NCBI GenBank assembly: GCA_041908065.1
Contig: JAYRGC010000039.1
Coordinates: 2,481-66,480, forward strand
DNA: 64,000 nucleotides
Reading direction: 5' to 3'
Origin: Alphaproteobacteria bacterium
GTDB taxonomy: Bacteria; Pseudomonadota; Alphaproteobacteria; UBA9219
The notes under the pieces are model-generated. The model saw nothing but the letters and a program-made list of their open reading frames with translations, was not told where the DNA came from and made no database searches. The position numbers and the translations under genes are program-made. Every line of letters starts with the position of its first letter. Position 1 is the stretch's first letter. Shown in pieces: positions 9,865 through 63,130 of the stretch.

Positions 9865-10119
9865 TTATCCCTTCTCGGTTTCAATTTTATTGCTCGGCCT
9901 ATCGCGTAGCCAAAGGCGCACATTGTGCTTCACTTCGCCACGCGAGTCGAGTTTAGGCATGGGCAACCAGCTAACATGGGCGCGTTGTAGGCTTAGAGCG
10001 CAGCTTTTTTTTACTGATCTATCGGTAATTAGCCGAGGCCAACTCTCTGACCAGCTCTTTTCTAAGCCATAATTCATATGTGCGATATACGTTATTGCCA
10101 ATGGATTTGCCGTTTGCAA
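9865..10119 (-). pseudogene. degenerate duplicated fragment of the 3' end of the downstream methyltransferase gene
   Basis: The translated segment KLDSRGEVKHNVRL (9921-9960) parallels ELDLWREVKHNKPV at the C-terminus of the MTase at 11071-11110. The two DNA copies share attgtgcttcacttcgc and agtcgagtt. Confidence 0.4.
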
Positions 10120-10951
10120 AAGGTTTTAACATCTCAATTGTAGAAGTTGAGTCCGACACTATGTAGTTAACACCCTCGGAAATGCTAACAATGTTGGCAA
10201 AACCACGACGCCCATCGGAGAATATTTCCTGTATCCCCCGCATTTTTTCGTCACTCATCAAACTTCTTGCATCCCATATTTCTATCTGCCCTATCCACAA
10301 ATCCCCACTGCGCAACGTCAGATATTTTTCATCCCGCAAAAGAGAAGCCGTCGGTTCCGAGGTTATAGTTGAACTGGTCTCCTCAAAATAACGCTTTGCC
10401 CCATCGCTTCCAAAATCTGTATGACCGGATATTTCCTCATAGGCTGAGATGTCTCTCGCAGTTGTTATCCTGCTGCGGAAATTAAGTGTGTTGGAAACTA
10501 TCGCCGCCAACAGCAGCTTGTAACTGGTAGCATTGAGCGAGTTTGCGTGGCCGTTTTCCTTGATTTTTTCCCAAACTATCGTAGCGCACGCGCCAACCGG
10601 AACTATCCATGAGCGGACGTCATGGCGAGTGTTCCAATGGCTTTCAAATCCATAGTGGTGGTCGAATACTTCAGTGATTTTATTGTGGTTCACTATGGGG
10701 TCGAAAAAATCGGGGTTTGATACGTCCATAACCACGAAATCGCATGCATCATCAGGAAGGGCATAGTCCTTGGCCGATTTCCATATGGTGGGCAGTTTTC
10801 GCAACATGGGAGGCACGGTGGCGTTGAGCGATGGCGTAAACAACACCATGGCCTTATCTCCACGTTTTCCGAGATAATCTCCGTAAGCCTCGGCGCAAGC
10901 CAGTGCGTCTATGTCTATGTGGCCGCTGCCGCTTGTCACAATTATCGTCAT
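10019..10951 (-). CDS. DHH-family phosphoesterase-like protein
   Basis: DHH motifs are present: GHIDIDALA (motif I, DxD), VMDVS (II) and FDHHYG (III, DHH). The gene is clearly lower in GC than its neighbours. Confidence 0.55.
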   Translation of the reverse strand: MTIIVTSGSGHIDIDALACAEAYGDYLGKRGDKAMVLFTPSLNATVPPMLRKLPTIWKSAKDYALPDDACDFVVMDVSNPDFFDPIVNHNKITEVFDHHYGFESHWNTRHDVRSWIVPVGACATIVWEKIKENGHANSLNATSYKLLLAAIVSNTLNFRSRITTARDISAYEEISGHTDFGSDGAKRYFEETSSTITSEPTASLLRDEKYLTLRSGDLWIGQIEIWDARSLMSDEKMRGIQEIFSDGRRGFANIVSISEGVNYIVSDSTSTIEMLKPFANGKSIGNNVYRTYELWLRKELVRELASANYR

Positions 10952-14573: not shown

Positions 14574-14690
14574 CCGTCATTGCGAGCGGCCTTTTTCAGG
14601 CCGCGAAGCAATCCATGGTCACTGGCATAATGGCACTGGATTGCTTCGCCGCCAAGGGGCGGCTCGCAATGACGGCTTTTGGTCGTCTAT
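14574..14690. repeat. family-A nested palindromic repeat, copy A1
   Basis: gtcattgcgagcggcc...gcgaagcaatcca / tggattgcttcgccgccaaggggcggctcgcaatgac inverted arms. Lies between the nuoN 3' end and birA. Confidence 0.85.
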
Positions 14691-16201: not shown

Positions 16202-16314
16202 GGTGATGCCCACGGGACTGTTGGTGGAGCGATGAGGGAGGAAATATAATGTGGTGGACATTGGAGCACTTTTGTAGTGTTTCTGCCAGATGTTTCATCA
16301 AGGAGAGGCAGGAT

Positions 16315-17232
16315 ATGGGGTTTAGCGGACTGTTTGGAAAAATGGCGGATTTTATTGGGTGTTCGCCAGGAATCGTTATGATTGTTTCCGGTATGTTAGG
16401 ATTGGTTTTTTCCTACGGGCATCTATTGCCGGATTTCATGTTGGCCGTCCTTGTTGCTGGAATAATTTTCCTTTCCTGTTTTCGCATAAACGCGCCATTG
16501 CCACGCAACGCTTTATGGCGGATACCCGTTTTCTGCGTTCTGCGCTATGTGGCCTTTCCGCTGCTCATGTGGTGGTTGTGCATGCAGATCGCTCCAGAAT
16601 ACGCCGTTGGGATGCTCCTGCTTGGCCTTTGTCCTGCTGGTTCGTCTTCGGCTGGATTCGCATCGATTTATAACGGCAATGTGTCCACGGCCATTGCCAT
16701 CACTGTATTCAGCAGCATAGCTTGCGTTGCGTTTATGCCAGTGATGTTTGGGGTGTTTGCGGGATTGGAGATTTCTGTATCTCCATGGCAATTGCTGCGT
16801 ACTTTGTCGTTATGCGTTCTTTTGCCAGGAGCGCTTTATCTGATTTTGCGCAGCAATGCCGCCGTAGTTGGATATTTTACAAGGAATGGACAAAATATCA
16901 CTGTGCTTATGCTTGGCGCGATAGTGTTTTTAGCACTAGCAAGAAATCAAGATACGTTGATTCAAAATCACAATGAGCTGCTATTGCCTTTTTCTCTTAT
17001 CGTAGGTTTTTACATGATGGCGATGATTGCAGGTTTCGCCATAAAAACTTCCCTGATGGAACGCATATCGTATGGAATATGCTCAACCTTCAATAATAAT
17101 GCGCTAGGCATTGGCATCGCTGGAATATACTTCGATAGCAAGGTGGTCGTGTTTATGGTGATGACATCAATCGTATGGATGACATTGCCGATTATTGCTC
17201 GACCAGTAATCAAGAATTTGAGCACTTCATAA
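16315..17232 (+). CDS. BASS/SBF-like (bile acid:sodium symporter superfamily) membrane transporter
   Basis: About 9 TM helices. LGLCPAGSSSAGFASIYNGNVSTAIAIT resembles the CPGG...SNV signature of the SBF/Acr3 superfamily. Low GC. Antisense to the flanking nuo genes. The start is uncertain (16249 or 16315). Confidence 0.5.
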   Translation: MGFSGLFGKMADFIGCSPGIVMIVSGMLGLVFSYGHLLPDFMLAVLVAGIIFLSCFRINAPLPRNALWRIPVFCVLRYVAFPLLMWWLCMQIAPEYAVGMLLLGLCPAGSSSAGFASIYNGNVSTAIAITVFSSIACVAFMPVMFGVFAGLEISVSPWQLLRTLSLCVLLPGALYLILRSNAAVVGYFTRNGQNITVLMLGAIVFLALARNQDTLIQNHNELLLPFSLIVGFYMMAMIAGFAIKTSLMERISYGICSTFNNNALGIGIAGIYFDSKVVVFMVMTSIVWMTLPIIARPVIKNLSTS

Positions 17233-20994: not shown

Positions 20995-21686
20995 ATTTCT
21001 ACCCCTTCGCCGATTTTGGGACGGCGGATTTCCATCACGTCCGCGGTTTTGATTGCCAACTGCGCCCCCACGTCCTGACGCTTGGCGTCCTTGCGTTGAC
21101 GCAAGGCCAATACTATCGCGCCCACCATGGCCACCAGCATTATAAGCCCGCAGAGCTGAAAGGGCAGGGCGTATTGAGTGTAAAGGACGTGGCCGATGGC
21201 GGTCGCATTGTCGGCGGCGTTTTCAGGAGAGCCGAACACTGCGGCTGCGGGCGAAGTCTTCCACGCCCACGTCGCGGCGATAAGCTGGGCGAGCATGACG
21301 ATCCCGACCAATCCGCCCAAGGGAAGGTATTCCATGAAGCCTTTTCGCATTTCGCGGGCGGTTATGTTCAGCATCATGACGACGAACAGGAACAAGACAG
21401 CCACCGCTCCGACGTAGACGATGATGAGCGTGAAGGCCAGAAATTCCGCGCCCATCAGCAGGAACAGCGCGGCGGCGTTGAAAAAGCACAGGATAAGGAA
21501 AAGCACCGAATGCACCGGATTGCGCGATGTCACCACCATCAACGCCGAGGCTATAAGCACGGCGGAGAAGGCGTAGAACACGCCTGCGCTCAACAGAGAG
21601 GGAAGATTTTGGAGGATAAAACTCAAAGCCGTTCTCCCTTTCAGGAAGAGGAAATCCCAGAATCCCATGTGGACTGCGAAGCGCAA
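20991..21686 (-). CDS. nuoJ: NADH-quinone oxidoreductase subunit J
   Basis: [44 protein letters not shown] is a NuoJ signature. The start is uncertain (21686 or 21668). Confidence 0.8.
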
Positions 21687-21761
21687 CCGCCAGAATTAAC
21701 CGGTGTTTCACAAACCAATCACCAAACCACAGAACCGAATTATAGCGCAGCAGCCCGCCAA

Positions 21762-22256
21762 TCACCTGTACTTCGCGTCTTCCCGTATGTTCGCGCCAAC
21801 CACGCATTCCCATTTTTCCCCGTTGGCCAACAGGCGTTCCTTGTCATAAATAAGGTCGCGGCGGCTGGCGGTGGGGCATTCCAGATTAGGCGTTTCGACG
21901 ATGGCGTCGACCGGACACGCCTCTTGGCACAGGCCGCAGAAGATGCACTTGGACAGGTCGATGTCATAGCGCGTGGTGCGGCGGCTGCCGTCGGCGCGAG
22001 GCTCGGATTCTATGGTTATGGCTTGGGCGGGGCATATCGCTTCGCACAGCTTGCAAGCGATGCAGCGTTCCTCCCCGTTGGGATAGCGGCGCAAGGCATG
22101 CACGCCCCTAAAGCGTGGACTGATTCTGCCTTTCTCGTAAGGGTAGTTCAGCGTCACCTTGGGGCGGAAAATATAGCTGAACGTCAACGCCATGCCCTTG
22201 GCCACATCAAGGGGGAGGTAGCGCAACAATCTGGCGACGATGGACGTTTTCGGCAT
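21762..22256 (-). CDS. nuoI: NADH-quinone oxidoreductase subunit I
   Basis: Two CxxCxxCxxxCP ferredoxin motifs ([24 protein letters not shown]). Confidence 0.9.
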
Positions 22257-22264
22257 ATGAGGCT

Positions 22265-23146
22265 CTACTTCTGCGGCGGTGGAGAGGAATAGGGCGCCGC
22301 CACTCGCAAGGCGATGTCCGTGGACAGGTTGTGCTTTCGCAGGATGCTCTCAATCGTGCCATCAAACAACATTTCATTGGTCGCGGTGTTCAGCATGGCG
22401 GCCAGCCGCGTCTCTCCGGCGGGAACCGTAATACTATAAGAGGTAACCGTAAGCGGAGGAGATACAACTCTCCGTATCGTGTTAGGGCGCTTGGCCATGT
22501 ATTCAGCCCCGAACATGGCGTCGGTTATAAACGCATCCGCCTTGCCATAGGCGACTTGTTCTAGCATGTCGCTTAGCGGCGATGTCCCGGGCAATCCCAC
22601 GGTTCGGCTTTGCGGAAACAGCGTTTTGGCGAGATTACCGCTTAGTGTGCCATCTATCGAAACGAAACTTTTGTCCTTAGCGTTCAACGCCCGCAACTTG
22701 TTGTCATAGACAGCAACCCCGTTTTTAACAAACACATAAAGCGGAGTATAGAATATGGGCTGCGTGTATTCGACGAACTTGCCTCTGGTCGCGTCGGGCA
22801 ATCCGCCGGAACATTCCAGATCGAATTTTCCGTAATTGAGGTCGGATAAGTATGTGGCGAAGTTAAGCTCCGATGTCCATTCGACCTTGAGATCGAGTTT
22901 CTTGCCCAAGGCATTTAGGTAATCATAGAACACCCCCGATATATCGCCGGTGTTCGGGTCTTTTGCGATTATCGGATTCCATACCGCATACCCGCACCGA
23001 ATCACGCCAGTCCGCATGATGCGCTCATAGGCCGTTTCGCGTTTTTCCGATGCGACAACGCCGCCGGACTCGTGACGCGCAAACCAGTAATGCGTCCCGA
23101 CGCTTGCCAGAACGGCGATGATGAGCATGGACAGGAGGTTTTTCAT
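22265..23146 (-). CDS. amino-acid ABC transporter substrate-binding protein (PBP2/family 3-like)
   Basis: Signal peptide and periplasmic-binding-protein-like organisation. Embedded between nuoH and nuoI on the same strand, with lower GC than the nuo genes. Confidence 0.6.
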
Positions 23147-27269: not shown

Positions 27270-27626
27270 GTGAATATGAAGAACAATAAGCGTGGTACTG
27301 CGATAAGCGCATTAGCCGCTGTGGCTATTACCGGGTGTAATAATGTGTCATGGGTAGAAACTGTTGTTTCAGGATATGGTGGTGATAATAGTAAAGACCA
27401 TATGGCAGTAGTTCGTACCTTTTCTGGCGGCGTGCAAGTGTACGCAGGAAGACCAGACAACTTGCGGTTTTTAAGAGATGATGGCAACACTTATGCGTTT
27501 CCTGATCAGTGTACTGGCACATGGATGATTGTCCCTAAGAGGGATTCCATGATTAGTATTGGCGACGATACTGGTTGTGACAAATTAAAAGGCAAAACAA
27601 ATAAGGGTAATGCCCCGACTCCATGA
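27270..27626 (+). CDS. hypothetical lipoprotein (low-GC)
   Basis: Signal peptide with lipobox AITGC. AT-rich gene and flanks, and no recognisable domain. Confidence 0.45.
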   Translation: MNMKNNKRGTAISALAAVAITGCNNVSWVETVVSGYGGDNSKDHMAVVRTFSGGVQVYAGRPDNLRFLRDDGNTYAFPDQCTGTWMIVPKRDSMISIGDDTGCDKLKGKTNKGNAPTP

Positions 27627-29680: not shown

Positions 29681-29744
29681 AAGCCCTTACGCGAAACTGG
29701 AGGATAATTTGACTATCAAAAACATAAGCAACCACCGTCATTGC

Positions 29745-29870
29745 GAGCCGCCCCATGGCGGCGAAGCAATCCAGAGTCGCGGAGCAACGGCATTGGATTG
29801 CTTCGCCGCCAAGGGGCGGCTCGCAATGACAACCCTTGGCTGTAACTTAGCAATGACAGCTTTTGTTACA
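29745..29870. repeat. family-A nested palindromic repeat, copy A2
   Basis: cgtcattgcgagccgcccc...gcgaagcaatccagagtc // cattggattgcttcgccgccaaggggcggctcgcaatgac. Lies between ispH and hpnH. Confidence 0.85.
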
Positions 29871-31126: not shown

Positions 31127-31978
31127 CTATATTTTCGCCTTTCGCCCGATCAGCAGCAGGCAGCCTTGTTTATCTTTTCCGTCAACGCTTGGGCGCAAAT
31201 CCGGCGTTATGACGGATCCGACGAACTTAGCCACTATGGATGGCAGGCGCAGATTGCCTCTGATGCCTAGGTTGCGCTGAATCTGTATGGGCGGCGATTT
31301 CCCGCCGCTGAGCGAGTGCAGCAATCCTCCGGTCAGGCCGCTTAACAGTTCCCAGCGGCGGGTTTCGCTGGCCGAAAGATAGGGATGCGTTTCGATCAGC
31401 GACAGGCCTGCGTCGGCCATATGCTCGCGCCATTCCCCTTCGTTCCAATAACGGAGATGCCGCAGCCGTTGGTCGAGGTCGCGCAAGTACCGATCCCGCG
31501 CCTTCCACGGCGATAGCGGATTGCGTAAAAGGCTGTGGAAATGCGGCCCGGGAACGGTGGCGACGAACAATCCGTTCGGGCGCAATACGCGGGAGCATTC
31601 GCGCAAAACCGCGTCTATGGGATCTATATGTTCCAGCACCGAGTTGCTGAATATCGCGTCGACGCCGGAATCCGGCAGCGGGGTTTTTTCTCCCCCGCAG
31701 CAAAATACTTCTTCGTATACGCCGGAAGCTTTCGCCAATCCGGTTTCCCAAGGATCGGGATCGATACCGATCAGTCGGCACGACGGCGGCAGAAAAGGTT
31801 TCAGTAGGCGCATTACGCCGCCGTCGCCGCAACCCAGATCGAGAACCTTGGCGCAGTCGCCGAACATGGGGGCGGCTATGCCTATCACCGCCGCCACCTC
31901 CGCCGCTCGCCATAGGCAGGTGGCTGGCTGGGCGGGAGCTTGCGCGATCTGGGCTGTCAGGATGTCGGCTGAAATCAC
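31127..31978 (-). CDS. class I SAM-dependent methyltransferase (type 11-like)
   Basis: VLDLGCGDGGV SAM motif I and DAIFSNSVLEHI motif. Confidence 0.7.
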   Translation of the reverse strand: MISADILTAQIAQAPAQPATCLWRAAEVAAVIGIAAPMFGDCAKVLDLGCGDGGVMRLLKPFLPPSCRLIGIDPDPWETGLAKASGVYEEVFCCGGEKTPLPDSGVDAIFSNSVLEHIDPIDAVLRECSRVLRPNGLFVATVPGPHFHSLLRNPLSPWKARDRYLRDLDQRLRHLRYWNEGEWREHMADAGLSLIETHPYLSASETRRWELLSGLTGGLLHSLSGGKSPPIQIQRNLGIRGNLRLPSIVAKFVGSVITPDLRPSVDGKDKQGCLLLIGRKAKI

Positions 31979-31980
31979 GT

Positions 31981-32466
31981 TCAGAACGGAACGTCGTCAT
32001 CCAGCTCCGGAGGCGGGGAGGAGGAAGACTGCGACGAAGACGAGGACGACAACGAAGACGGGGAAGAAGAATATGGATCCATGCTGTCCCCTCCGCTGCT
32101 GCCGCCGCCACGGTTGGCGGAATCCAAAAGCGTCAATTCTCCGCGATAGGGGCGCAGGACGACTTCGGTAGTGTACTTATCCTGTCCCGACTGGTCTTGC
32201 CATTTGCGGGTTTCCAGCTGGCCTTCGATATAGACTTTCGAGCCTTTTTTAAGGAAACGCTCGACGATGCCGACCAGATTGTCGTTCATTACCGACACGC
32301 GATGCCATTCGGTGCGCTCTTTCTTTTCTCCAGAGGACTTGTCCTTCCAGCTTTCGGATGTGGCTATGGAAAAGTGCGCTACTCTCCCGCCGTTTTGGAA
32401 CGAGCGGATCTCCGGATCCTTGCCCAGATTGCCGACCAATATCACTTTGTTCACGCTGCCAGCCAT
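31981..32466 (-). CDS. ssb: single-stranded DNA-binding protein
   Basis: OB-fold N-terminus ([17 protein letters not shown]...TEWHRVSV), a Gly/Ser-rich linker and the acidic tail DDDVPF. Confidence 0.9.
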
Positions 32467-32681
32467 TTTCGCCCCCGATAGTTAATACGCATTCTTTCAC
32501 GTTAACCATGAAGAAAAGAGCATAAAAATTCGGCACTTTCAACAACGCCCTTTAGGCTATGGCGGTTTAACGGCCATGAAAATAAATAAATTGTTTGAGG
32601 AGTTGGACGGCAAAATGGTAATGTTCCCGTGGTAGTTTTTGAGCGTAGCAGCTTATTGGCGGGCAATTTAAGGAGAATGGT

Positions 32682-33008
32682 ATGATGAAGAAGGATATGT
32701 TGAAGACGTTAGTCGCCGCGGCCATGGCGATAGGGATTTCCGGTTGCGGCAATGTGGTCGAACAGCCGAAGCCTGAGGCGAGGGATCCTTTTGAAGTATA
32801 TAATTCCAACGGCCAGAAAGTGACATTCGAGTTTCCTAAAAACATGCCGGAAACGAAAAGCCCTCGCGAGAAAGCGTTCTCGGTGGCGGCGGCAGGGAGC
32901 GATGTCGACGGTGGTGCGCCAGCCCCCCGTGAAGTCGGTGACGACGCGAAAGCAAAACGCAAAAGACCTGCCGTTGTTGTCGGTCATTATACACACCCCA
33001 AGTGGTAA
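32682..33008 (+). CDS. hypothetical lipoprotein
   Basis: Signal peptide with lipobox ISGC; no recognisable domain. Confidence 0.4.
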   Translation: MMKKDMLKTLVAAAMAIGISGCGNVVEQPKPEARDPFEVYNSNGQKVTFEFPKNMPETKSPREKAFSVAAAGSDVDGGAPAPREVGDDAKAKRKRPAVVVGHYTHPKW

Positions 33009-33039
33009 ACCGGTTTTTGTCAGACCAAGGTGATAGCCG

Positions 33040-33558
33040 TTGTCGGATATAGCCAAAAAGAGAATCGGGGTTTGGTTTTTGGCGGCGGCTTGTTTTGTGG
33101 CGGGGTGCGGCGGCCCTGATTTGCCGACTGGGATTTATAGCTTCAAGTATTATCCGTCCACGCAGGAATGCGTAAGGGTAAGGACGGTTTGGGAAGAGGG
33201 CCGCCTAAATTCCACCAAGAAGCCAGAAGACATAGGCAAGTCGTGCCAAAATCTGTTTTCTCACCAATCCGACGACGGGCAAGGCATGGGGGTGCTGGTG
33301 GCGGAGAGGATAGGCGCGGCGGATGCGTATGTTGGCTACAGTGCGCCTAACATGGTTTTAATCCTACCTGTGCGCAGAGGTTCCAATGGCCAACGTATTG
33401 TTCATAGGTGCGGGGATTTGAGCGAAAAAATAAGCAGGACAAGCTATTCGCAATGGAAAGGGAACGAAAGCGATTGCGGCGGCGGTTCGACTTCTATACT
33501 TCCTGAGGTCATAAGACTTGGTTTGTTAAGGACATCGGCTCAGGCTCATACACCTTGA
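33040..33558 (+). CDS. hypothetical lipoprotein
   Basis: Signal peptide with lipobox VAGC; several Cys; no recognisable domain. Confidence 0.4.
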   Translation: MSDIAKKRIGVWFLAAACFVAGCGGPDLPTGIYSFKYYPSTQECVRVRTVWEEGRLNSTKKPEDIGKSCQNLFSHQSDDGQGMGVLVAERIGAADAYVGYSAPNMVLILPVRRGSNGQRIVHRCGDLSEKISRTSYSQWKGNESDCGGGSTSILPEVIRLGLLRTSAQAHTP

Positions 33559-38198: not shown

Positions 38199-38852
38199 TT
38201 ACCTCATGTTATAAGTGAAAGAGATTGAATTAGTGGAAGTTCCATTGCAAGCGGCAACTATGGCCGGAATCGACGGTATTGCAGGGGGGGTTATTGTGAG
38301 CGCACCAGCGTTTATATGTACCCTTGTCAGTCCTACATTGCCTGACAATCCTGAAACTTTTTGCACAAGATCAGGACATGCGTTTTGCGGTACACCATAG
38401 AAAACCACACTGAAATTAGACGCGCTGCCTGTGCCTGCGGCATCTGCACCCGGAGGAGCTGCATCAGCAGCAGCACTAGCGGCCTGTCCTTGAACTATTC
38501 TTGTGCCGAAAGCAGGAGTTGCCCCGCCAATTCCAGCCCAAGGATTGATGATGGATACGACGTTAGCCCCATTCTTGCCCAACATATCCGCTGGCACGGC
38601 ATTAGTCTGGCCGAGTGCAACCGACCATGGTACGGCTGCGCCAAAGTCGGAAGATGTCGCATATAAAGCCCTGACACCTTGAACTACTGACAGCAATTGC
38701 TCGCTGGCACGAGATATGCGCAGATTGGTGTAAACCGACGCCGCCGCCACCCAGACTCCGCCGAGGATCAATCCCACGATTCCGAGCACTATGGCTGCTT
38801 CGGTCAAGGTGAAGCCGCGCATCGCGCGGGCTTTTTGCCGTTCTACGATCAT
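38199..38852 (-). CDS. type IV pilin-like protein (class III signal peptide; unusually large)
   Basis: Leader MIVERQKARAMRG followed by FTLTEAAIVLGIVGLILGGVWVAAA (prepilin peptidase site G|FTL(T)E plus hydrophobic helix). There is a C-terminal Cys...Cys pair (D-region-like). No pilus-assembly genes are nearby. Confidence 0.6.
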   Translation of the reverse strand: MIVERQKARAMRGFTLTEAAIVLGIVGLILGGVWVAAASVYTNLRISRASEQLLSVVQGVRALYATSSDFGAAVPWSVALGQTNAVPADMLGKNGANVVSIINPWAGIGGATPAFGTRIVQGQAASAAADAAPPGADAAGTGSASNFSVVFYGVPQNACPDLVQKVSGLSGNVGLTRVHINAGALTITPPAIPSIPAIVAACNGTSTNSISFTYNMR

Positions 38853-39093
38853 AGTAATTCTCCGTTCGCTGTTTGCAGTTGCGACATACGGCCACGATAA
38901 GGATACAGGCACCATGCCTGAACGGCCACACGCCAAAGACCATAGCACCATCATTACGGCTGCGACATCCTGAAAACGTCGCGGCCACCGGAATTTTCTA
39001 AGCACGCTAGCGGGAGAATGTTATAAAAACGTTAATGCAAAAACAAGGAGGTTCTTTTTCAAAACGGTTAGGTACGACCAAAGGGAAGGGGAT

Positions 39094-39235
39094 CGTCATT
39101 GCGAGCCGCCCCTTGGCGGTGAAGCAATCCAGAGTCGTTGTGCATGTGGCACGGGTTTGCTCCGCCGCCACGGGGCGGCTCGCAATGACAGCCTTTGGCT
39201 GTAGACTCAATATGACGGCTTTTGGCTGTGACTTT
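39094..39235. repeat. family-A nested palindromic repeat, copy A3
   Basis: Same arms as A1/A2 plus the ACAGCC-TTT-GGCTGT sub-modules. Confidence 0.85.
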
Positions 39236-39258
39236 GTAATCAAGGAGAATGTTCCGAC

Positions 39259-39906
39259 ATGAAAGCCGCCGACATCGACGAGTTCTTTGCCCGCCTTGCC
39301 GCCGCGAGGCCGGAGCCGAAGATAGAGCTTGATTACGTCAATCCCTATACCCTGTTGGTGGCGGTGGTGCTGTCGGCCCAATCCACAGACGTCGGGGTGA
39401 ACAAGGCGACTGCTTCGCTGTTCCGCGAGGTTTCTTCTCCGGCGCAAATGGTGGCTTTGGGCGAGGAGAGGTTTAAGGAGCGCATAAAAACTATAGGACT
39501 GTTCAACGCCAAGGCGGCCAACATAATCGCCTTGTCCAAAATTTTAACTGAGAAGTTCGGCGGCGAGGTTCCTCGTTCCCGCGAGGAATTGCAGTCCTTG
39601 CCCGGGGTGGGACGCAAAAGCGCGAACGTCATTCTGAACACCGCGTTCAGGGAGCCGGTAATAGGGGTGGATACCCATATATTCCGCGTCGCCAACCGCA
39701 CCGGATTGGCGTTCGGCAAGACGCCGGAGGCAATCGAAAAGGAATTGATGAAGAAAATCCCCCCGCGTTGGCTGCTGAACGCGCATCATTGGCTGGTTTT
39801 GCATGGGCGATACACTTGCAAGGCCAAGAAACCGGATTGCGCCAATTGTCCGGTCAGCGCGTTATGCGAAAATAGGCAGGATTTGCGGACAGATAGCGGT
39901 CGCTGA
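39259..39906 (+). CDS. nth: endonuclease III
   Basis: HhH-GPD fold, catalytic Lys region and C-terminal [4Fe-4S] cluster loop CKAKKPDCANCPVSALC. Confidence 0.9.
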   Translation: MKAADIDEFFARLAAARPEPKIELDYVNPYTLLVAVVLSAQSTDVGVNKATASLFREVSSPAQMVALGEERFKERIKTIGLFNAKAANIIALSKILTEKFGGEVPRSREELQSLPGVGRKSANVILNTAFREPVIGVDTHIFRVANRTGLAFGKTPEAIEKELMKKIPPRWLLNAHHWLVLHGRYTCKAKKPDCANCPVSALCENRQDLRTDSGR

Positions 39907-39965
39907 GCTGCCACCGTGAGCCTGTCGAACGGCTGTCGAAGCGACTGCGATGGGATGGCCGCCGC

Positions 39966-40085
39966 TTGGTGAGGGTTATCAAGTTGGGTTTGAGAAAAGA
40001 ACCCTCACCAAGGTATTGCCACGAATTTTCGAAGGCGAAAATTCGGGCAAACCTATCCTCTCCCAGAGGGAGAGGGGGGATTGCT
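39966..40085. repeat. family-B three-hairpin repeat, second copy
   Basis: Near-identical to 37917-38040. Lies between nth and the T4CP-like gene. Confidence 0.85.
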
Positions 40086-40094
40086 GAACGTTGG

Positions 40095-42506
40095 TTACTT
40101 GCGATCCGACAAGCCTTTGTTCATTTTGTCGGCCATGGTTTCCAGCAATTTCATAACGCCGCCCGACAATCCGGTCTTCAGAACCGCGCCGCCGTAGTCC
40201 TTGTCTTCATCGCCGGATCTTTCAAGTTTGGATTCCAGAGCGGCTTCCATAAGGTCTTTGTCTTCGCTGAACGGCTTTGATTGCGCCGCAGTCACGCCGT
40301 TGCCGTTAGGATGGGCGTGGCCGTTTCCGTATTCGGCGCGGCTGATTTCGTCGATGGCGAACTCGTCGCCCGATTGCAGCAACGGAACGCCTTCGGGTTG
40401 CGATGCGGAAATCTGGGTCGGAAAACCGGATTCCGAGGCGGCTCGGGCAACCGAAGGCAAGGGCGGTTTGGCGGGAGAAGCCGCCGCCGCTTTGGCCGGT
40501 TGCGGCGCGGTCGTGGCGATATGAGCCAGAACCGAGGCCGTTTTATCCACGCCGCCGGATTTCGCCTCGGCCAGAGCGTCGGCAATCATGGAAATCTCCG
40601 CCGCCGTCGTGGCCGCCGGAGGAGACGCAGTGGCGGCCTTCCAATCCTTGTCCGACAGGCGGGTGGCCAATTCGGCCAAGGCGCGTTCTCTTGCCGTCGA
40701 GACGGTCGTTGTGGCCGGAACCGGCAGCATGTGGTGAACCCGCAAGGCCTTCACCTTGTCGGCCACGGCGTGGAACAGGCGGGCGCGGGAGATATACTCG
40801 GCGAACAGCATATGCACTTCGCCTTCGCGCTGGGTGCGAAGGTGGTCGTAGTCGGCGCGCACGCGCGATTGCGCCGCGCCCGCTCCGCGATCGTCGTAGA
40901 ACGGCGCGGTCATAAACAGGCTGGAGATGGTGTTGGTGGGGGAGGTCATGCCGCGATTTTCCATCACCCACGACGTGCCGACGTGTTCTTGGAAGAATTT
41001 TTTGGTTTCCGTCGGATCCTCGATTTTTCCAAATATCTTGAGGTTGCAGTTGCCGAGGATTGATTGCGCCTCTTGCTTGACGCGCTTTTCCATCGACGGC
41101 AAATCTTGCGCCGCGAATATCAGCGAGAAACCGAGCGAACGCGCTTGCGCCGCCATCACGGCCATGCCTTGGGCTGTGTAGTAGCCGACTTCGTCGAACA
41201 CCGTCATAAACGACGAGCTGGAGCGCGTTTGCTTGCTGCCGATTGCGCTTTCCCAGCTGCCCTCGACCGTGTTGCCCAGCGTCGCGCCCATCATGCCCTT
41301 GAGGCTAGCGGCGACGATTTTGCCTAAGTTGGCGGCTTCGTCGCCGGATTTTTCCAAGGCCGGAATCAGGCCGACCAGAATGCGGCGGTTCAGCACCACG
41401 TCCAAGACGTCGACGTCGGCCAGCTGCGCCTTGAAGATATAGCCGTATTCGTCGCCCAAAGACTGCAGCGAGCGGGTGAATTGCATCGACAGGTAGCCGT
41501 GTTGTTGCCGCGCCACCGACAAGTCGTACATCGGTTGTTCCGGCGAGGGGGGCTTTTCGTTGCCTTCGTCGTCGAAGGCCGCGTCGACGAAGCCCGGCAG
41601 GGTATTCAGGTATCCCCGCAGGGCGCGCAAAACGCGCTCGGGCAGGGTTTGGTCGCGGGAGAGGCGGATTATGGGCTTCAGCTCGATATATTCGCGCAAC
41701 ACGCCCACGTCCAACAATAATCCCTGCTTGTCGCGCTTGAACGTCAGCGCGGGCATCAACGCGCCCATCAGCGCGACGGCGCGTTCCTTCCACATGGCGT
41801 TGTCGCCGCCAGCGTCCGGCATCAGGCTGGTAACCATGTTCGTCAGATAAGATGCCGAGCCGTTGGCGAACGGGTTCATGGTGTTGGAGACGGCCCCGCT
41901 GTCGGAGTTGGCTGTCATGTAGTTGAGCACTAGCAGATCGTCATCGCGACCGAAACGACGGGCGATGGCGTACAGCGAAGCCCAAAGATCGGTGTCGGCC
42001 TTGCCATCGACGTAGACGAAGCCGGATCCCCATGCGAGGGAATTGACCACCAACGATTTCAGACCTTCGGTCTTTCCCGATCCAGTCGTGCCCAGAAACA
42101 GGATATGCGTGCGAGCGTCGCTATTGGTTAGCCACAATTCCCGCCCGTGATCGGGGTTCTCGGCGTCGTCGACTACGCCCAGATATAATATACCCTCCGA
42201 TTTTCCCGCGCCGGATTTTCCGGGCGGGGCGTTGTGTTTGTCCGGCAGTCCGGCGTTTTTGGGGAATTTGAACGGCATGACGAAGGGGCGTTTGCTCATC
42301 CATCTCGCGTAAAACAGCACGCAGAATAAGGCAATATCAGACCAAGCGTAGACTTCGGGCAAGACAATCAATGTGACGGACACGGCGGCCAACGCCGCCG
42401 CGAACATTTTTGTCTGTCCCCAGTAATCGGCGATACGCACCGACGCCGGCCGGACGTCGCGCATAAGATTGCGCCGAGCTATTGCGTGTTTGGGGAGAAT
42501 CGTCAT
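40095..42506 (-). CDS. type IV secretion coupling protein (T4CP; TraD/VirD4/DotL-like) homolog, orphan
   Basis: Two N-terminal TM helices, Walker A HILFLGTTGSGKTEGL, a downstream VYVDGKADTDLW block, Walker B SSFMTVFDEVGYY, and a long low-complexity Ala/Pro-rich acidic C-terminal tail. Confidence 0.55.
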   Translation of the reverse strand: MTILPKHAIARRNLMRDVRPASVRIADYWGQTKMFAAALAAVSVTLIVLPEVYAWSDIALFCVLFYARWMSKRPFVMPFKFPKNAGLPDKHNAPPGKSGAGKSEGILYLGVVDDAENPDHGRELWLTNSDARTHILFLGTTGSGKTEGLKSLVVNSLAWGSGFVYVDGKADTDLWASLYAIARRFGRDDDLLVLNYMTANSDSGAVSNTMNPFANGSASYLTNMVTSLMPDAGGDNAMWKERAVALMGALMPALTFKRDKQGLLLDVGVLREYIELKPIIRLSRDQTLPERVLRALRGYLNTLPGFVDAAFDDEGNEKPPSPEQPMYDLSVARQQHGYLSMQFTRSLQSLGDEYGYIFKAQLADVDVLDVVLNRRILVGLIPALEKSGDEAANLGKIVAASLKGMMGATLGNTVEGSWESAIGSKQTRSSSSFMTVFDEVGYYTAQGMAVMAAQARSLGFSLIFAAQDLPSMEKRVKQEAQSILGNCNLKIFGKIEDPTETKKFFQEHVGTSWVMENRGMTSPTNTISSLFMTAPFYDDRGAGAAQSRVRADYDHLRTQREGEVHMLFAEYISRARLFHAVADKVKALRVHHMLPVPATTTVSTARERALAELATRLSDKDWKAATASPPAATTAAEISMIADALAEAKSGGVDKTASVLAHIATTAPQPAKAAAASPAKPPLPSVARAASESGFPTQISASQPEGVPLLQSGDEFAIDEISRAEYGNGHAHPNGNGVTAAQSKPFSEDKDLMEAALESKLERSGDEDKDYGGAVLKTGLSGGVMKLLETMADKMNKGLSDRK

Positions 42507-43304: not shown

Positions 43305-43470
43305 TTATGGCCAAAGGCCGTCATTGCGAGCCGCCACTCTTTGGTTTGGACAGCGTTGAACGCTGTCGGGCGGCGAAGCAATCCAGTGCCGTTGCTCCAT
43401 AAGGTCTGGATTGCTTCGCCGCCAAGGGGCGGCTCGCAATGACGGCTTTTGGCTGTAGACCTTGCAATGG
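43305..43470. repeat. family-A nested palindromic repeat, copy A4 (with extra inner palindrome GGACAGCGTTGAACGCTGTC)
   Basis: Arms as A1-A3 plus an inserted hairpin that is also present in A8. Confidence 0.85.
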
Positions 43471-43490
43471 CGGTTTTCGGAATTATCAGT

Positions 43491-44366
43491 TCAAGCCGAT
43501 TTGCGGAATTCGGGTTCGAAGGGGCGGGGGGAATAGCGCAACAAGCGGCGGCCTTCTTCGCAATCGAAGACCATGTTTTCGTTCATGCGCTCGAACACGC
43601 CGTATCCTAGGGATTTTCCGTCGATAACCCGAAGACGTTTGCCGACGGCGAAGACGTTTTTTAGGACGGAAGTCGGCAAATGGAGCATAAGCGGGCGACG
43701 GTCAAGGGAACGGAAAATCTTTTTGACCATTTCGCGGTATGACAACACTTGGCCTCCGGCGATGTTCAACGACTTTCCGTAGACGGTGGAGTTTCCGATG
43801 GCTCCCATGATCGCCGCCGCCACGTCGTCGGCGTGGATCGGTTGCCGCAATCCCTTGGCTTCTCCGGCCAAGGGAAATACCCACATTTTCTTTATGAACC
43901 TGGCTATTCTGGAGATGTTTTGATCGGCCACGCCGTCATAGATCATGTTGGAACGTAAAATGGTGCAGGGAATTTCATGTATAGCAGCCCAAGATGTAAG
44001 GATGTTTTCGCCCATTTCGATATTTTCCGCCAACATTCTTTCTTTGGCGTCTTGGCTTTTGGCTTTGGAATATCTGCTTATGGAGCTTAACGCCACTATG
44101 GCTTGCGCGCCTGAAAACCTTTGCAGGTTGCGAGCCAGAACCCATATCGGGGCCAGACTAAGCAATATCGAGCCTTTCGGCATGACGGTTTTGTCGGTTT
44201 CCGAAATGTCGAGGTGGATGAGCTTAAATCCCGACGGCAGATCCAGATTGCGGCGCGATATGACGCTGGCTTCCAGTCCTTCGGCGGCAAGACGATCCAT
44301 AAGATATTCAGCGACAAGGCTGCGACCGCCGAAAATGACTATTTCAGGTTTGGGTGAATCCGTCAT
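43491..44366 (-). CDS. NAD(P)-dependent epimerase/dehydratase-family (atypical SDR) protein
   Basis: N-terminal Rossmann IVIFGGRSLVAEYLMDRL and overall NmrA/epimerase-like length and pattern. Confidence 0.55.
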   Translation of the reverse strand: MTDSPKPEIVIFGGRSLVAEYLMDRLAAEGLEASVISRRNLDLPSGFKLIHLDISETDKTVMPKGSILLSLAPIWVLARNLQRFSGAQAIVALSSISRYSKAKSQDAKERMLAENIEMGENILTSWAAIHEIPCTILRSNMIYDGVADQNISRIARFIKKMWVFPLAGEAKGLRQPIHADDVAAAIMGAIGNSTVYGKSLNIAGGQVLSYREMVKKIFRSLDRRPLMLHLPTSVLKNVFAVGKRLRVIDGKSLGYGVFERMNENMVFDCEEGRRLLRYSPRPFEPEFRKSA

Positions 44367-44547
44367 TTAACACCGCCTTAGGGATTTGATTGGAAGATAC
44401 GAAGGATCTGAAAATATCTATCGGTTGCCGCAGTATACTCGAATCGTTATAAAAACGGAACCGTTTGTGTGCGCTTTATTTTGCAGCTCCTGCGGATTGA
44501 GGCTATAAAGCCGTGTCGGATAACTTTTGTTACGGGGGGGCTATCGC

Positions 44548-45660
44548 ATGAGTCACGGGGCAGCAGAAGCGCAGGCGTACCGCCCTTGGCGCGAGATCAA
44601 GCGTCGCGCCAGTCGCCGGATAATGGTCGGCAAGGTTCCGGTCGGAGGGGACGCCCCTATCGCCGTGCAATCGATGACCAATACTTTGACTTCGGATGCC
44701 CAGGCCACTATCGCCCAGATAAAGCGGATGGAGGATGCCGGAGCCGATATCGTGCGGGTTTCCTGCCCCGACGAGGAATCCACAGCCGCGCTGAAGGAGA
44801 TCGTGCGTTCGGTGAGCGTTCCCATAGTGGCCGACATCCATTTCCATTATCGGCGCGGCATCGAAGCCGCCGAGGCCGGAGCGGCCTGTCTGCGTATTAA
44901 CCCGGGCAACATTGGCTCGGCGGAGCGGGTGCGGGAAGTCGTCAAGGCGGCCAAGGATCACGGATGCTCGATGCGGATAGGCGTCAACGCTGGATCGCTG
45001 GAGCACGAGCTTTTGGAGAAGTATGGCGAGCCTTGCCCCGACGCCATGGTCGAAAGCGCGTTGACGCACGCCAAGATTCTCGAAGACCACGATTTCCGCG
45101 AGTTTAAGATCAGCGTCAAGGCCTCGGACGTGTTTTTAGCCGTCGCCGCATATCATGGGCTGGCGGAGGCTTGCGATTATCCGTTGCACGTCGGCATCAC
45201 CGAGGCCGGAGGATTGCGGGCGGGCACGGTTAAAAGCTCCATCGGCATGGGCGCGTTGCTGTGGGCGGGGATCGGCGACACCATCCGCGTTTCGCTTTCC
45301 GCCGATCCGGTGGAGGAAGTGCGGGTGGGGTTTGATATTCTAAAGTCGCTGGGGCTTAGGAGCCGAGGCGTCACCGTTATTTCCTGTCCTTCGTGCGCGC
45401 GCCAGAATTTCGACGTCATCAAGACGGTGGCGGCGTTGGAGGAAAGGTTGGCGCATATAACGGAGCCGCTAACCGTTTCCGTTATCGGCTGCGTCGTCAA
45501 CGGCCCGGGCGAAGCCCTGATGACCGACATCGGATTTGCCGGAGGCGGCAAGAACACCCATCAGGTTTATGTCAACGGCCAGCAGGATCACCGTTTGAAG
45601 GACGGCGACATAGTTTCGCATTTGGCGGAACTGGTGGAAAAGGAAATCAAGAAGAAGTGA
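44548..45660 (+). CDS. ispG: 4-hydroxy-3-methylbut-2-en-1-yl diphosphate synthase (flavodoxin)
   Basis: GcpE signature blocks (VQSMTNT...DIVRVSCP...ADIHFH...RINPGNIG) and C-terminal Cys ligands (CPSCAR...GCVVNGPGE). Confidence 0.9.
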
Positions 45661-45679
45661 TTAGACTTCTTGCATAACT

Positions 45680-45878
45680 GTCGTCATTGCGAGCGGCCCC
45701 TTGGCGGCGAAGCAATCCAGATTCATAGCGCAACGGCACTGGATTGCTTCGCCGCCAAGGGGCGGCTCGCAATGACGCCCTTCCTCAGCCCTCCCCAAAA
45801 AACCAAAATGTAAATCGGTGGATTTTAACGGGGTAGAGACAGCCTTTGGCTGTGACTTCGTAATGACGCTAAACTTGG
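45680..45878. repeat. family-A nested palindromic repeat, copy A5 (core plus detached ACAGCC-TTT-GGCTGT module)
   Basis: Core at 45680-45780, and a module agcctttggctgtgacttcgtaatgacgctaaac at 45841-45875. The outer TIR-like cttcttgcataa is at 45667. Confidence 0.8.
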
Positions 45879-47057: not shown

Positions 47058-47166
47058 GTCGTCATTGCGAGCGGCCTTCTTCTGGCCGCGAAGCAATCCA
47101 GTGCAGTTGCTCCATGGCTCTGGATTGCTTCGCGTCGCAAGGGCGACGCTCGCAATGACGCTAAAC
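47058..47166. repeat. family-A nested palindromic repeat, copy A6
   Basis: gtcattgcgagcggcc...gcgaagcaatcca // tggattgcttcgcgtcgcaagggcgacgctcgcaatgac. Confidence 0.85.
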
Positions 47167-52519: not shown

Positions 52520-52730
52520 CCTGTTACAGCCAAAGGCCGGTCATTGAGAGGTCTACGGCCAAAGGCCGTCATGCGAGGTCTACGGCCAAAGGCCGTCATT
52601 GCGAGCGTCGCCCTTGCGACGCGAAGCAATCCAGAGTCATAGAACAACGGCACTGGATTGCTTTGCGGCCTGAAGAAGGCCGCTCGCAATGACGGCCTTT
52701 GGCCGTAACAGGGTAGATGCCGGCCTTTGA
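52520..52730. repeat. family-A nested palindromic repeat, copy A7, with tandem GGCCAAAGGCCGTCAT sub-repeats
   Basis: Three tandem ggccaaaggccg(g)tcat(t/g) units precede the A core (gtcattgcgagcgtcgcccttgcgacgcgaagcaatccag...ctggattgctttgcggcc...ggccgctcgcaatgac). Confidence 0.85.
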
Positions 52731-52735
52731 CCGTA

Positions 52736-62889: not shown

Positions 62890-62904
62890 ATTTCTTGCAT
62901 AAAT

Positions 62905-63130
62905 GCCGTCATTTGCGAAGTAGACAGCCAAAGGCCGTATGCGAGCCGCCTCTTGGGTTTGGGCGTCATTGCGAGCCGCCACCCTTTGGTTTGGACAGCT
63001 TTGAACGCTGTCGGGCGGCGAAGCAATCCAGAGCCGTTGCTCTATGACTCTAGATTGCTTCGCCGCCAAGGGGCGGCTCGCAATGACAGCCTTTGGCTGT
63101 GACTTCGCGTGACAGCAGTTATGCAAGAAG
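62905..63130. repeat. family-A nested palindromic repeat, copy A8, with outer TIRs TTCTTGCATAA / TTATGCAAGAA
   Basis: Full-length element: outer TIR, gtcattgcgagccgcc arms (duplicated left arm), inner GGACAGCTTTGAACGCTGTC hairpin, and an ACAGCC-TTT-GGCTGT module. Confidence 0.85.

Follow-up and report, generated by a model that had tools for sequence, protein, structure and literature searches.

The 64-kb window (the whole stretch of alphaproteobacterial DNA that was analysed, 64,000 nucleotides) carries eight copies of a palindromic double-hairpin repeat of about 100 bp, Family A. Matched by sequence against published definitions, Family A proves to be a lineage-specific, dimeric variant of the known class of CGTC-tagged REPs. 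In many other genomes, the GTCATTGCGAG type of this repeat is the flanking repeat of a distinct subclade of Ssn nucleases with the signature REKQIK[AG]GSR. We consider it probable (about 0.7) that Family A is a CGTC REP variant whose hairpins are the single-stranded DNA (ssDNA) sites of an Ssn of this subclade encoded elsewhere in the genome.

The original prediction described eight copies with shared arms, and all of them were confirmed. The exact arm GTCATTGCGAGC occurs 16 times in the 64 kb, where 0.59 matches are expected by chance, and each copy contains one match on the plus strand and one on the minus strand, 83–112 nt apart. The inner arm GCGAAGCAATCCAG was found 15 times with up to two mismatches (0.72 expected by chance in the window). 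The eight regions are real, but two of their limits had to be moved: the start assigned to A2, 29745, falls 9 nt inside the core, and the palindrome of A8 really spans 62892–63129. The window is a housekeeping segment of a chromosome. It contains flagellar rod and ring genes, lysS, the nuo operon, birA, coaX, tsf, ispH, hpnH, degP, gpsA, pdxH, nth, ispG, mreB, yceD, a P-type ATPase gene, alaS, kdsA, pssA, psd and the PBP1A gene. Using ORF picking and Pfam on about 60 window ORFs, we found that all eight copies are intergenic. Seven of them lie at the 3' end of a gene, one more than the six counted before, and A3 is the exception. Pfam detected no transposase, Y1/HUH or GIY-YIG domain in these ORFs, and there is neither an ssn gene nor a RAYT within the 64-kb window. 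The family is thus non-autonomous, as had been proposed, with no mobilising gene in the window.

The core of each of the eight copies is an inverted pair of one unit of about 40 nt, with the CGTC heads directed outward and a spacer of 18–19 nt between the two units. Read from 5' to 3', the unit consists of CGTC, ATTGC, GA, a GC-stem-loop-stem-GC segment, GAA, GCAAT and CCAG. All 16 units give the same DNA fold, in which a head of 4 unpaired nt is followed by stem 1 (5 bp), a GA/GAA internal loop, stem 2 (6–7 bp) with its loop, and an unpaired tail. The head is CGTC in 12 units and TGTC in the other 4, and no fold pairs any of its four bases. In 15/16 units stem 1 is ATTGC/GCAAT, and in 14/16 the tail is CCA(G/T/A). 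The loops measure 4–7 nt; in A4 and A8, the extra hairpin brings the loop to about 29 nt. Stem 2 occurs in three types: alpha (GCCGCC/GGCGGC), beta (GCGGCC/GGCCGC) and gamma (GCGTCGC/GCGACGC). When the 13 distinct units were aligned, 96.6% of the base-pair cells were paired, compared with 24–62% in slid-partner controls, and compensatory changes on both sides were seen at four stem-2 pairs. The single-strand folding of all eight cores is far more stable than that of shuffles (z = -8 to -13). The homodimers A2, A3 and A5 can alternatively form a single 37-bp hairpin, and the heterodimers A1, A6 and A7 fold as four-way junctions.

In the core coordinates given here, the C preceding GTCATT is counted. 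Four copies stand 3' of a stop codon between co-directional neighbours. A1 (14575–14690, core 14575–14674, plus strand) is located 55 nt 3' of the nuoN stop with birA downstream; its left stem 2 is beta (GCGGCC) and its right one alpha (GCCGCC), with a degenerate mini-hairpin at the right. A2 (29736–29870, core 29736–29831, plus strand) follows the ispH stop by 56 nt, with hpnH downstream, and is an alpha/alpha homodimer forming the 37-bp hairpin; its right modules are a mini-hairpin and a degenerate head. A6 (47060–47160, with a core of the same extent, minus strand) lies 27 nt 3' of the yceD stop and upstream of mreB. It is a heterodimer, beta on the left and gamma on the right, folded as a four-way junction, and represents the A7 subtype inverted in the genome. 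A7 itself (52528–52732, core 52594–52694, plus strand), gamma on the left and beta on the right, has its end 4 nt away from the alaS stop; on its left stand three mini-hairpins and two degenerate heads in tandem, and on its right two mini-hairpin modules.

Three copies are held by convergent gene pairs. A4 (43309–43470, core 43319–43444, minus strand) is located between hexapeptide-transferase and epimerase genes; the left unit has the inserted apical hairpin GACAGCG-TTGAA-CGCTGTC, and mini-hairpins stand on both sides. A5 (45667–45777, core 45682–45777, plus strand) begins 7 nt past the stop of ispG, which is convergent with mreB. It is composed of TTCTTGCATAA, CTGT and the dimer, and its left stem 2, a beta/alpha hybrid, contains one mismatch. 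The right outer module of A5 is detached (45841–45867, minus strand): some 60 nt of unrelated sequence stand between the core and this module, which consists of the mini-hairpin AGCCTTTGGCT and the degenerate head GTGACTTCGTAATGAC. A8 (62892–63129, core 62964–63088, minus strand), the longest copy, begins 3 nt past the stop of the PBP1A gene, which is convergent with a patatin-like gene. It combines the outer arms TTCTTGCATAA/TTATGCAAGAA, degenerate heads and mini-hairpins with a core dimer of the A4 subtype, the apical hairpin being inserted. Taken whole, the A8 region forms a nested palindrome of 238 nt (z = -15.5), and the A7 region is similar.

The only copy away from a gene 3' end, A3 (39094–39235, core 39094–39190, plus strand), is placed between divergent genes, a pilin-like one and nth. 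It is an alpha/alpha dimer with the most diverged right arm and with two mini-hairpin modules at the right. The adjoining region 38199–42506 has a type IVb pilin-like ORF (PilS/bundlin/N-methyl motifs, GC3 0.48) amid housekeeping genes, as well as an 803-aa TraG/TraD-like coupling protein. This region may have been left behind by a conjugative or integrative element. Elsewhere in the window, an 881-aa ORF (4748–7393) has an N-terminal half resembling Hsp70/actin-like ATPases, followed by about 500 residues without a Pfam match. The ORFs at 10019–10951, 16249–17232, 21096–22292, 27270–27626 and 31227–33558 have a low third-position GC content (0.37–0.55 against about 0.7–0.8 nearby), and most of them lack a Pfam match. 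Wrongly called frames or a recent acquisition of the DNA may account for them.

The spacer is asymmetric (consensus AGTCATAGAGCAACGGCA) and gives each dimer a polarity, one way in A1, A2, A3, A5 and A7 and the other way in A4, A6 and A8. The orientation of the copies is independent of gene direction. After orienting by spacer, A6 is the same (gamma, beta) dimer as A7, and A4 is the same dimer as A8, alpha and alpha with the inserted hairpin. Since dimer subtypes recur entire in these two pairs, the unit that is copied is the whole dimer and not a single arm.

The original prediction was right about the core and about the placement at gene 3' ends. The inner hairpin GGACAGCGTTGAACGCTGTC, predicted for A4 and A8, is present in A4 and, with one mismatch, in A8. 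The flanking mini-hairpin RGCCAAAGGCY has 24 matches in the window against 5.7 expected, and at the copies it is invariably placed just outside a head and oriented. Mini-hairpins alternate with degenerate heads, such as GTCATTGAGAGGTCTAC in A7. The proposed outer terminal inverted repeats (TIRs) were upheld only in part. The TTCTTGCATAA/TTATGCAAGAA arms are real at A8, as is TTCTTGCATAA at A5, and TTCTTGCATAA occurs exactly three times in the window, on the left of A5 and on both sides of A8. Because it is confined to these two loci, it is not the terminus of the family as a whole.

Two further features were seen outside the dimers. The sequence AATGACGCTAAAC stands 3' of the head at 45862–45874 (the detached A5 module) and at 47153–47166 (the right end of A6), on either side of mreB, so that the A5 module and A6 have a flank in common beyond the conserved head. 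Tandem arrays of truncated or degenerate heads (GTCAT...GAG), spaced 23–38 nt apart, extend outside full dimers and are mirrored on the opposite side (52528–52594). Similar arrays occur at the cyanobacterial Ssn locus of a Planktothrix plasmid (L231) and in two viral contigs (L115, 4628–4700; L094, 2570–2740). These arrays suggest repeated partial duplication at the head, which is presumed to be the cleavage side.

The class to which Family A is assigned was defined by Di Nocera, De Gregorio and Rocco in 2013 (PMC3733652). By this definition, a CGTC-tagged REP has a CGTC head, a stem starting with AT, a 4–5-nt loop and a CCA tail. Such REPs are found chiefly in Alphaproteobacteria, yet in five phyla in all. 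Inverted pairs prevail among them, as homodimers or heterodimers, and lie 3' of ORFs. Several CGTC families can coexist, exceptions in loop length are noted, and RPE-4 and RPE-6 of Rickettsia are assigned to the CGTC type. The paper reports these REPs without associated transposase genes, and no RAYT flanked by CGTC repeats in many species. Family A agrees with this description in the unpaired CGTC (TGTC/CCTC) end, which is CGTC or TGTC in 16/16 units, and in the first two stem pairs, A-T, together with the CCA tail. It also agrees in its inverted dimers (8/8) downstream of unidirectional or convergent ORFs (7/8 past a stop codon, 3 of them convergent). It departs from it in the stem, which is not a continuous one of 8–9 bp with a 4–5-nt loop but is split (5 bp, a loop and 6–7 bp). 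The comparison of the GTCATTGCGAG type and of the consensus CGTCATTGCGAGCGNAGCGAAGCAATCCA was made with the text definitions of the class, in which four families are numbered.

Searches of reference collections pointed to no other family. An Rfam scan of the window at the gathering threshold detected two tRNAs only, a permissive scan of A8 gave only miRNA-like hairpin matches far below the threshold, and a literature search with exact sequence strings returned nothing relevant. Integron attC and Xer/dif-like sites were also considered and rejected: the head and tail are unlike the core sites, and the conserved halves are spaced from 3 to 41 nt apart.

The family is not a local duplication: the arm motif is present in at least 120 contigs of a viral collection, where it was found as the half-site GTCATTGCGAGC-N(0-30)-GAAGCAATCC, and on plasmids of several genera. 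Among the matches listed, the commonest form is the 27-mer GTCATTGCGAGCGNAGCGAAGCAATCC (97/140 units). Its tip is GCGNAGC, which we take to be a very stable GNA-triloop DNA mini-hairpin, and N in it is free (A 47, C 28, T 11, G 11). The second common unit is GAG-GAGC-GNA-GCGAC-GAAGCAAT. There are also many variants in which the tip is exchanged for longer co-varying stems, and the window units belong here. The alpha/beta unit specific to the window was found in one viral contig only (L055). Clustering of the genes next to the motif in the 120 listed viral contigs revealed only shared phage/GTA structural genes and spurious high-GC ORFs. Several viral loci, among them L088, contain a second palindrome (translated as ...VPAFAGMT...) of the NTS-like type CGTCATTCCCGC on contigs that also carry the GTCATTGCGAG type, an instance of coexisting CGTC families.

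Inverted dimers of the same geometry are present on plasmids of N. aromaticivorans, N. resinovorum (at least 40 places) and M. trichosporium OB3b and on plasmids from Methylocystis, Methylobacterium, Aulosira, Halomonas and Legionella, the genera Novosphingobium and Methylosinus being included. None of these plasmid dimers is annotated. They were recovered with the short-form consensus; a BLAST search with A5 of the window gave a single plasmid record, since the alignment is interrupted at the inserted stem. The GTCATTGCGAG type has a very broad distribution and extends over Alphaproteobacteria, cyanobacteria and low-GC contigs with the look of Bacteroidota. Close to the window, the picture is one of lineage specificity. 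A 2.3-kb short-read Logan contig (SRR26835459) corresponds to window positions 43428–45750, ends inside the arms of A4 and A5, and has a 100% identical ispG. The closest other ispG relatives are 77–86% identical, the next-best at about 85%. The GTDB representatives at 77–84% ispG identity are Rhodospirillales-like Alphaproteobacteria (Stellaceae, Azospirillaceae, Dongiaceae). The motif is found in none of 80 related ispG loci, and the family is therefore lineage-specific at that level.

The candidate enzyme comes from a system described by Chenal et al. in 2025 (PMC11893778). The Neisseria dRS3/NTS repeat, CGTCATTCCCGCGMAVGCGGGAATCYRG, is recognised by SsnA, a 94-aa GIY-YIG protein that binds NTS as ssDNA only and cuts a few nucleotides upstream of it. 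The critical bases of NTS are the three before the palindrome and the C after it. The ssn homologues across bacteria are flanked by related hairpins, called SRM, and the binding and cutting of ssDNA were shown for the Neisseria and Wolbachia pairs (PMC11893778). It turned out that Family A units and NTS both have CGTCATT...AATCCAG, the critical bases included. The published SRM search motif, HGTCWYN(0-2)YYVSBRHN(0-5)WNVSBRGN(0-2)RNCYNB (PMC11893778), has 0 matches on both strands of the window. Type I, type II and window units all fail this motif, and NTS and the A. lipoferum units pass it.

In other genomes, the repeat type flanks ssn, a single-domain GIY-YIG gene of about 95 codons, often on both sides. 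To find such loci, we used a composite scan for a GTCATTGCGAG-type head located 15–50 nt after a back-translated NPxWxD motif. In metagenomes, the scan gave at least 120 loci, and in 112 of the 120 listed the repeat abuts or overlaps an Ssn-like ORF. A repeat was also present within 300 nt upstream of 93 of the 103 evaluable near-full genes among the listed loci, against a background of 0.139 per kb on the same contigs; this upstream match is not required by the scan pattern, and selection on the downstream side together with repeat clustering inflates the value to some degree. The commonest layout among the listed loci is dimer-ssn-dimer. The same scan detected the viral contig L228, in which a GIY-YIG gene has GTCATTGCGAG dimers on both sides; used as a single-protein query, its Ssn found itself only in the viral collection.

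The Ssn proteins at these loci are of a particular kind. In about 100 of the 109 near-full Ssn-like genes among the listed loci, K[AGS]G[STN]R.KK replaces the KKWNRAWK of the Neisseria SsnA homologue. One GSR-type protein has 59% identity with the SsnA homologue of N. gonorrhoeae and a Pfam GIY-YIG match. In a viral sample searched with a GSR-type profile, both GS(R/N)-type Ssn genes were flanked by the repeat (2/2), and the repeat was missing from 25 W-type and 5 unclassified Ssn homologues (0/30). Other Ssn genes, found on plasmids and viral contigs, each have flanks of an SRM variant particular to them, none of the GTCATTGCGAG type. At the loci with the GTCATTGCGAG repeat type, the genes flanked are those of the distinct Ssn subclade with REKQIK[AG]GSR. 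The pairing of this type, missed by the SRM motif, with the GSR-type Ssn is the point that goes beyond both papers; it is a modest one and holds for other genomes.

The ssn gene of A. lipoferum 4B has a heads-out dimer of CGTCATCCCCGCGAAGGCGGGGATCCAG on each side, in a geometry like that of Family A. On plasmid AZO_p3 of this strain (L203, 255.3–256.0 kb), the dimer-ssn-dimer segment is located between sufB and sufC, with the suf operon otherwise intact. It behaves like an insertion and is a clean example of one. On S. meliloti pSymB (L230, 1.7047–1.7060 Mb), about 300 nt separate the annotated ssn ORF from the 3' end of another, nearly identical one upstream of it; these are apparently tandem ssn units with CGTCATCCTCGGGCTTGACCCGAGGATCC repeats between them. 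On the Planktothrix agardhii plasmid p1 (L231, 18.2–19.7 kb), an Ssn gene and its repeats have a type IIL MmeI restriction-modification gene on one side and DISARM drmA on the other, in a defence island.

By analogy with these genomes, the genome that contains the window would encode a GSR-type Ssn, and this Ssn may bind and nick the Family A hairpins as ssDNA. The hairpins would then act at the level of single-stranded DNA, with which the stable GCGNAGC tip of the widespread short form and the lack of a relation between copy orientation and gene direction agree. As in the case of Neisseria SsnA and NTS, the enzyme would bind the hairpin and the C that follows it, and its nick would fall a few nucleotides to the 5' side of the CGTC head. 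The canonical unit, autonomous in appearance, would be dimer-ssn-dimer, and the eight copies in the window would be dimers without the gene. Such dimers would persist where insertion is tolerated, just 3' of stop codons. The maintenance or spread of the repeats presumably depends on the interaction between Ssn and the hairpin. A REP-like effect of the copies on mRNA 3' ends is possible and, if there is any, would be secondary. A bolder version of this mechanism is quite unlikely in our opinion. According to it, the GTCATTGCGAG-type dimers and the REKQIK[AG]GSR Ssn are a self-propagating pair in which a GIY-YIG single-strand nuclease, and no known class of transposase, drives copy-out/copy-in via ssDNA, and the interrupted stem with its replaceable stem 2 is a new, partly programmable recognition mode of site-specific ssDNA nucleases.

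The 3' location of the copies can also be read at the level of RNA. In this case, transcribed 3'-UTR hairpins would be selected as bidirectional terminators or mRNA stabilisers, and their spread would be incidental. Seven copies directly past stop codons, three of them between convergent genes, and very stable hairpins agree with this; such effects are known for REPs of other bacteria, and RNA roles are proposed in PMC3733652. We nevertheless think this explanation unlikely. Bidirectional intrinsic terminators, suggested by the original prediction, are not what the sequence resembles: no T-run (U-tract in the transcript) follows the hairpins, and terminator-like structures are about as frequent as in shuffled sequence (23 against 19.5 at 39–53 kb), with one incidental overlap, at A6. 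The hairpins correspond to no Rfam family, and their orientation relative to the upstream gene is not fixed. Across phyla, the head, stem 1 and tail keep their sequence, which speaks for a protein that recognises them, and Ssn does not bind RNA (PMC11893778). Intergenic sites at gene 3' ends are also expected from purifying selection against disruptive insertions.

Two further explanations name another enzyme. REP doublets could be moved by a REP-associated tyrosine transposase (RAYT, Y1/HUH) encoded in single copy elsewhere, and the build of Family A, two inverted hairpins and a spacer copied whole, is REPIN-like. Reading the flanks of the eight copies by eye, we saw no target-site duplications, as is expected of ssDNA hairpin elements. 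This route is very unlikely, since the head is CGTC and not GTAG, and no RAYT is flanked by CGTC repeats in many species according to PMC3733652. The search for a RAYT/IS200 mobiliser was also negative: E. coli RayT and IS200 TnpA gave no tblastn match in the window and 240 motif-bearing loci (1.74 Mb). The RayT query was checked against the annotated K-12 gene; Pfam did not recognise RayT at E ≤ 0.001. In the same motif-bearing DNA, the repeat directly flanks over 100 Ssn genes. The absence of visible target-site duplications weighs, in turn, against a classical MITE, that is, an internally deleted DDE-type IS with TTCTTGCATAA or the GTCATTGCGAGC arms as its TIRs, which the transposase of the parent IS would move in trans. 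Family A has the inverted ends, small size, multiple copies and lack of coding capacity of a MITE, and it was first described as MITE-like, with outer TIRs. We find this barely credible: TTCTTGCATAA is present at two loci only, and what is conserved at the ends is the CGTC head of each of two inverted REP-like hairpins, units that occur singly, in tandem and beside ssn genes in other organisms. No transposase domain is encoded by the ~60 window ORFs, and no IS with such ends turned up. We retain the reading of Family A as CGTC REP dimers with an Ssn partner.

Under this reading, the eight conspicuous intergenic palindromes are ordinary CGTC-type REP dimers. In practice, Family A dimers break short-read assemblies. 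The link to the GSR-type Ssn may explain some of the Ssn genes reported without SRM flanks. The two tryptophan-containing positions (KKWxRxWK against K[AG]GSRxKK) are candidate specificity determinants, and the GTCATTGCGAG repeat with the GSR-type Ssn is a new candidate pair of site and nuclease for ssDNA tools of the kind that this enzyme family has been proposed to provide.

Family A can be compared with several known systems. Like the BIMEs of enterobacteria and the Rickettsia palindromic elements (RPEs), it is a mosaic of palindromic units and accessory motifs, with tandem partial units beside full ones. Its accessory motifs (RGCCAAAGGCY, the degenerate heads and TTCTTGCATAA) are specific to this genome, unlike those of BIMEs and RPEs, and many RPEs are inserted in coding sequence, whereas the Family A copies are not. 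With the REPIN-RAYT system (Bertels and Rainey, 2011; PMC3116915), it shares a replicating unit made of an inverted doublet of REP hairpins with a spacer, and a presumed enzyme encoded elsewhere; REPINs have a GTAG head and an HUH/Y1 transposase, and neither is present in Family A and the window. The likeness to the CGTC-tagged REPs includes the CGTC/TGTC head, the AT-starting stem, the CCA tail, inverted homo- and heterodimers with spacers (20–100 nt in the published families, 18–19 nt in Family A) downstream of ORFs, between unidirectional or convergent genes, a distribution centred on Alphaproteobacteria that reaches several phyla, and no linked transposase. The continuous stem of the published families is split in Family A by the GA/GAA internal loop, and its loops have 4–7 nt or an inserted extra hairpin.

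The NTS/SRM-Ssn system has the same CGTCATT head and AATCCAG tail with a hairpin between them, the same intergenic location, copies that number in the hundreds, which we likewise count as a shared trait, and a repeat type that flanks ssn on both sides as an IS-like unit. The Ssn partner here is 45–59% identical to the Neisseria SsnA homologues. Family A differs from NTS/SRM in the sequence of its stem, which is interrupted, and in failing the SRM motif. The nucleases associated with the repeat type belong to a subclade of their own, in which REKQIK[AG]GSRxKK replaces REKQLKKWxRxWK.
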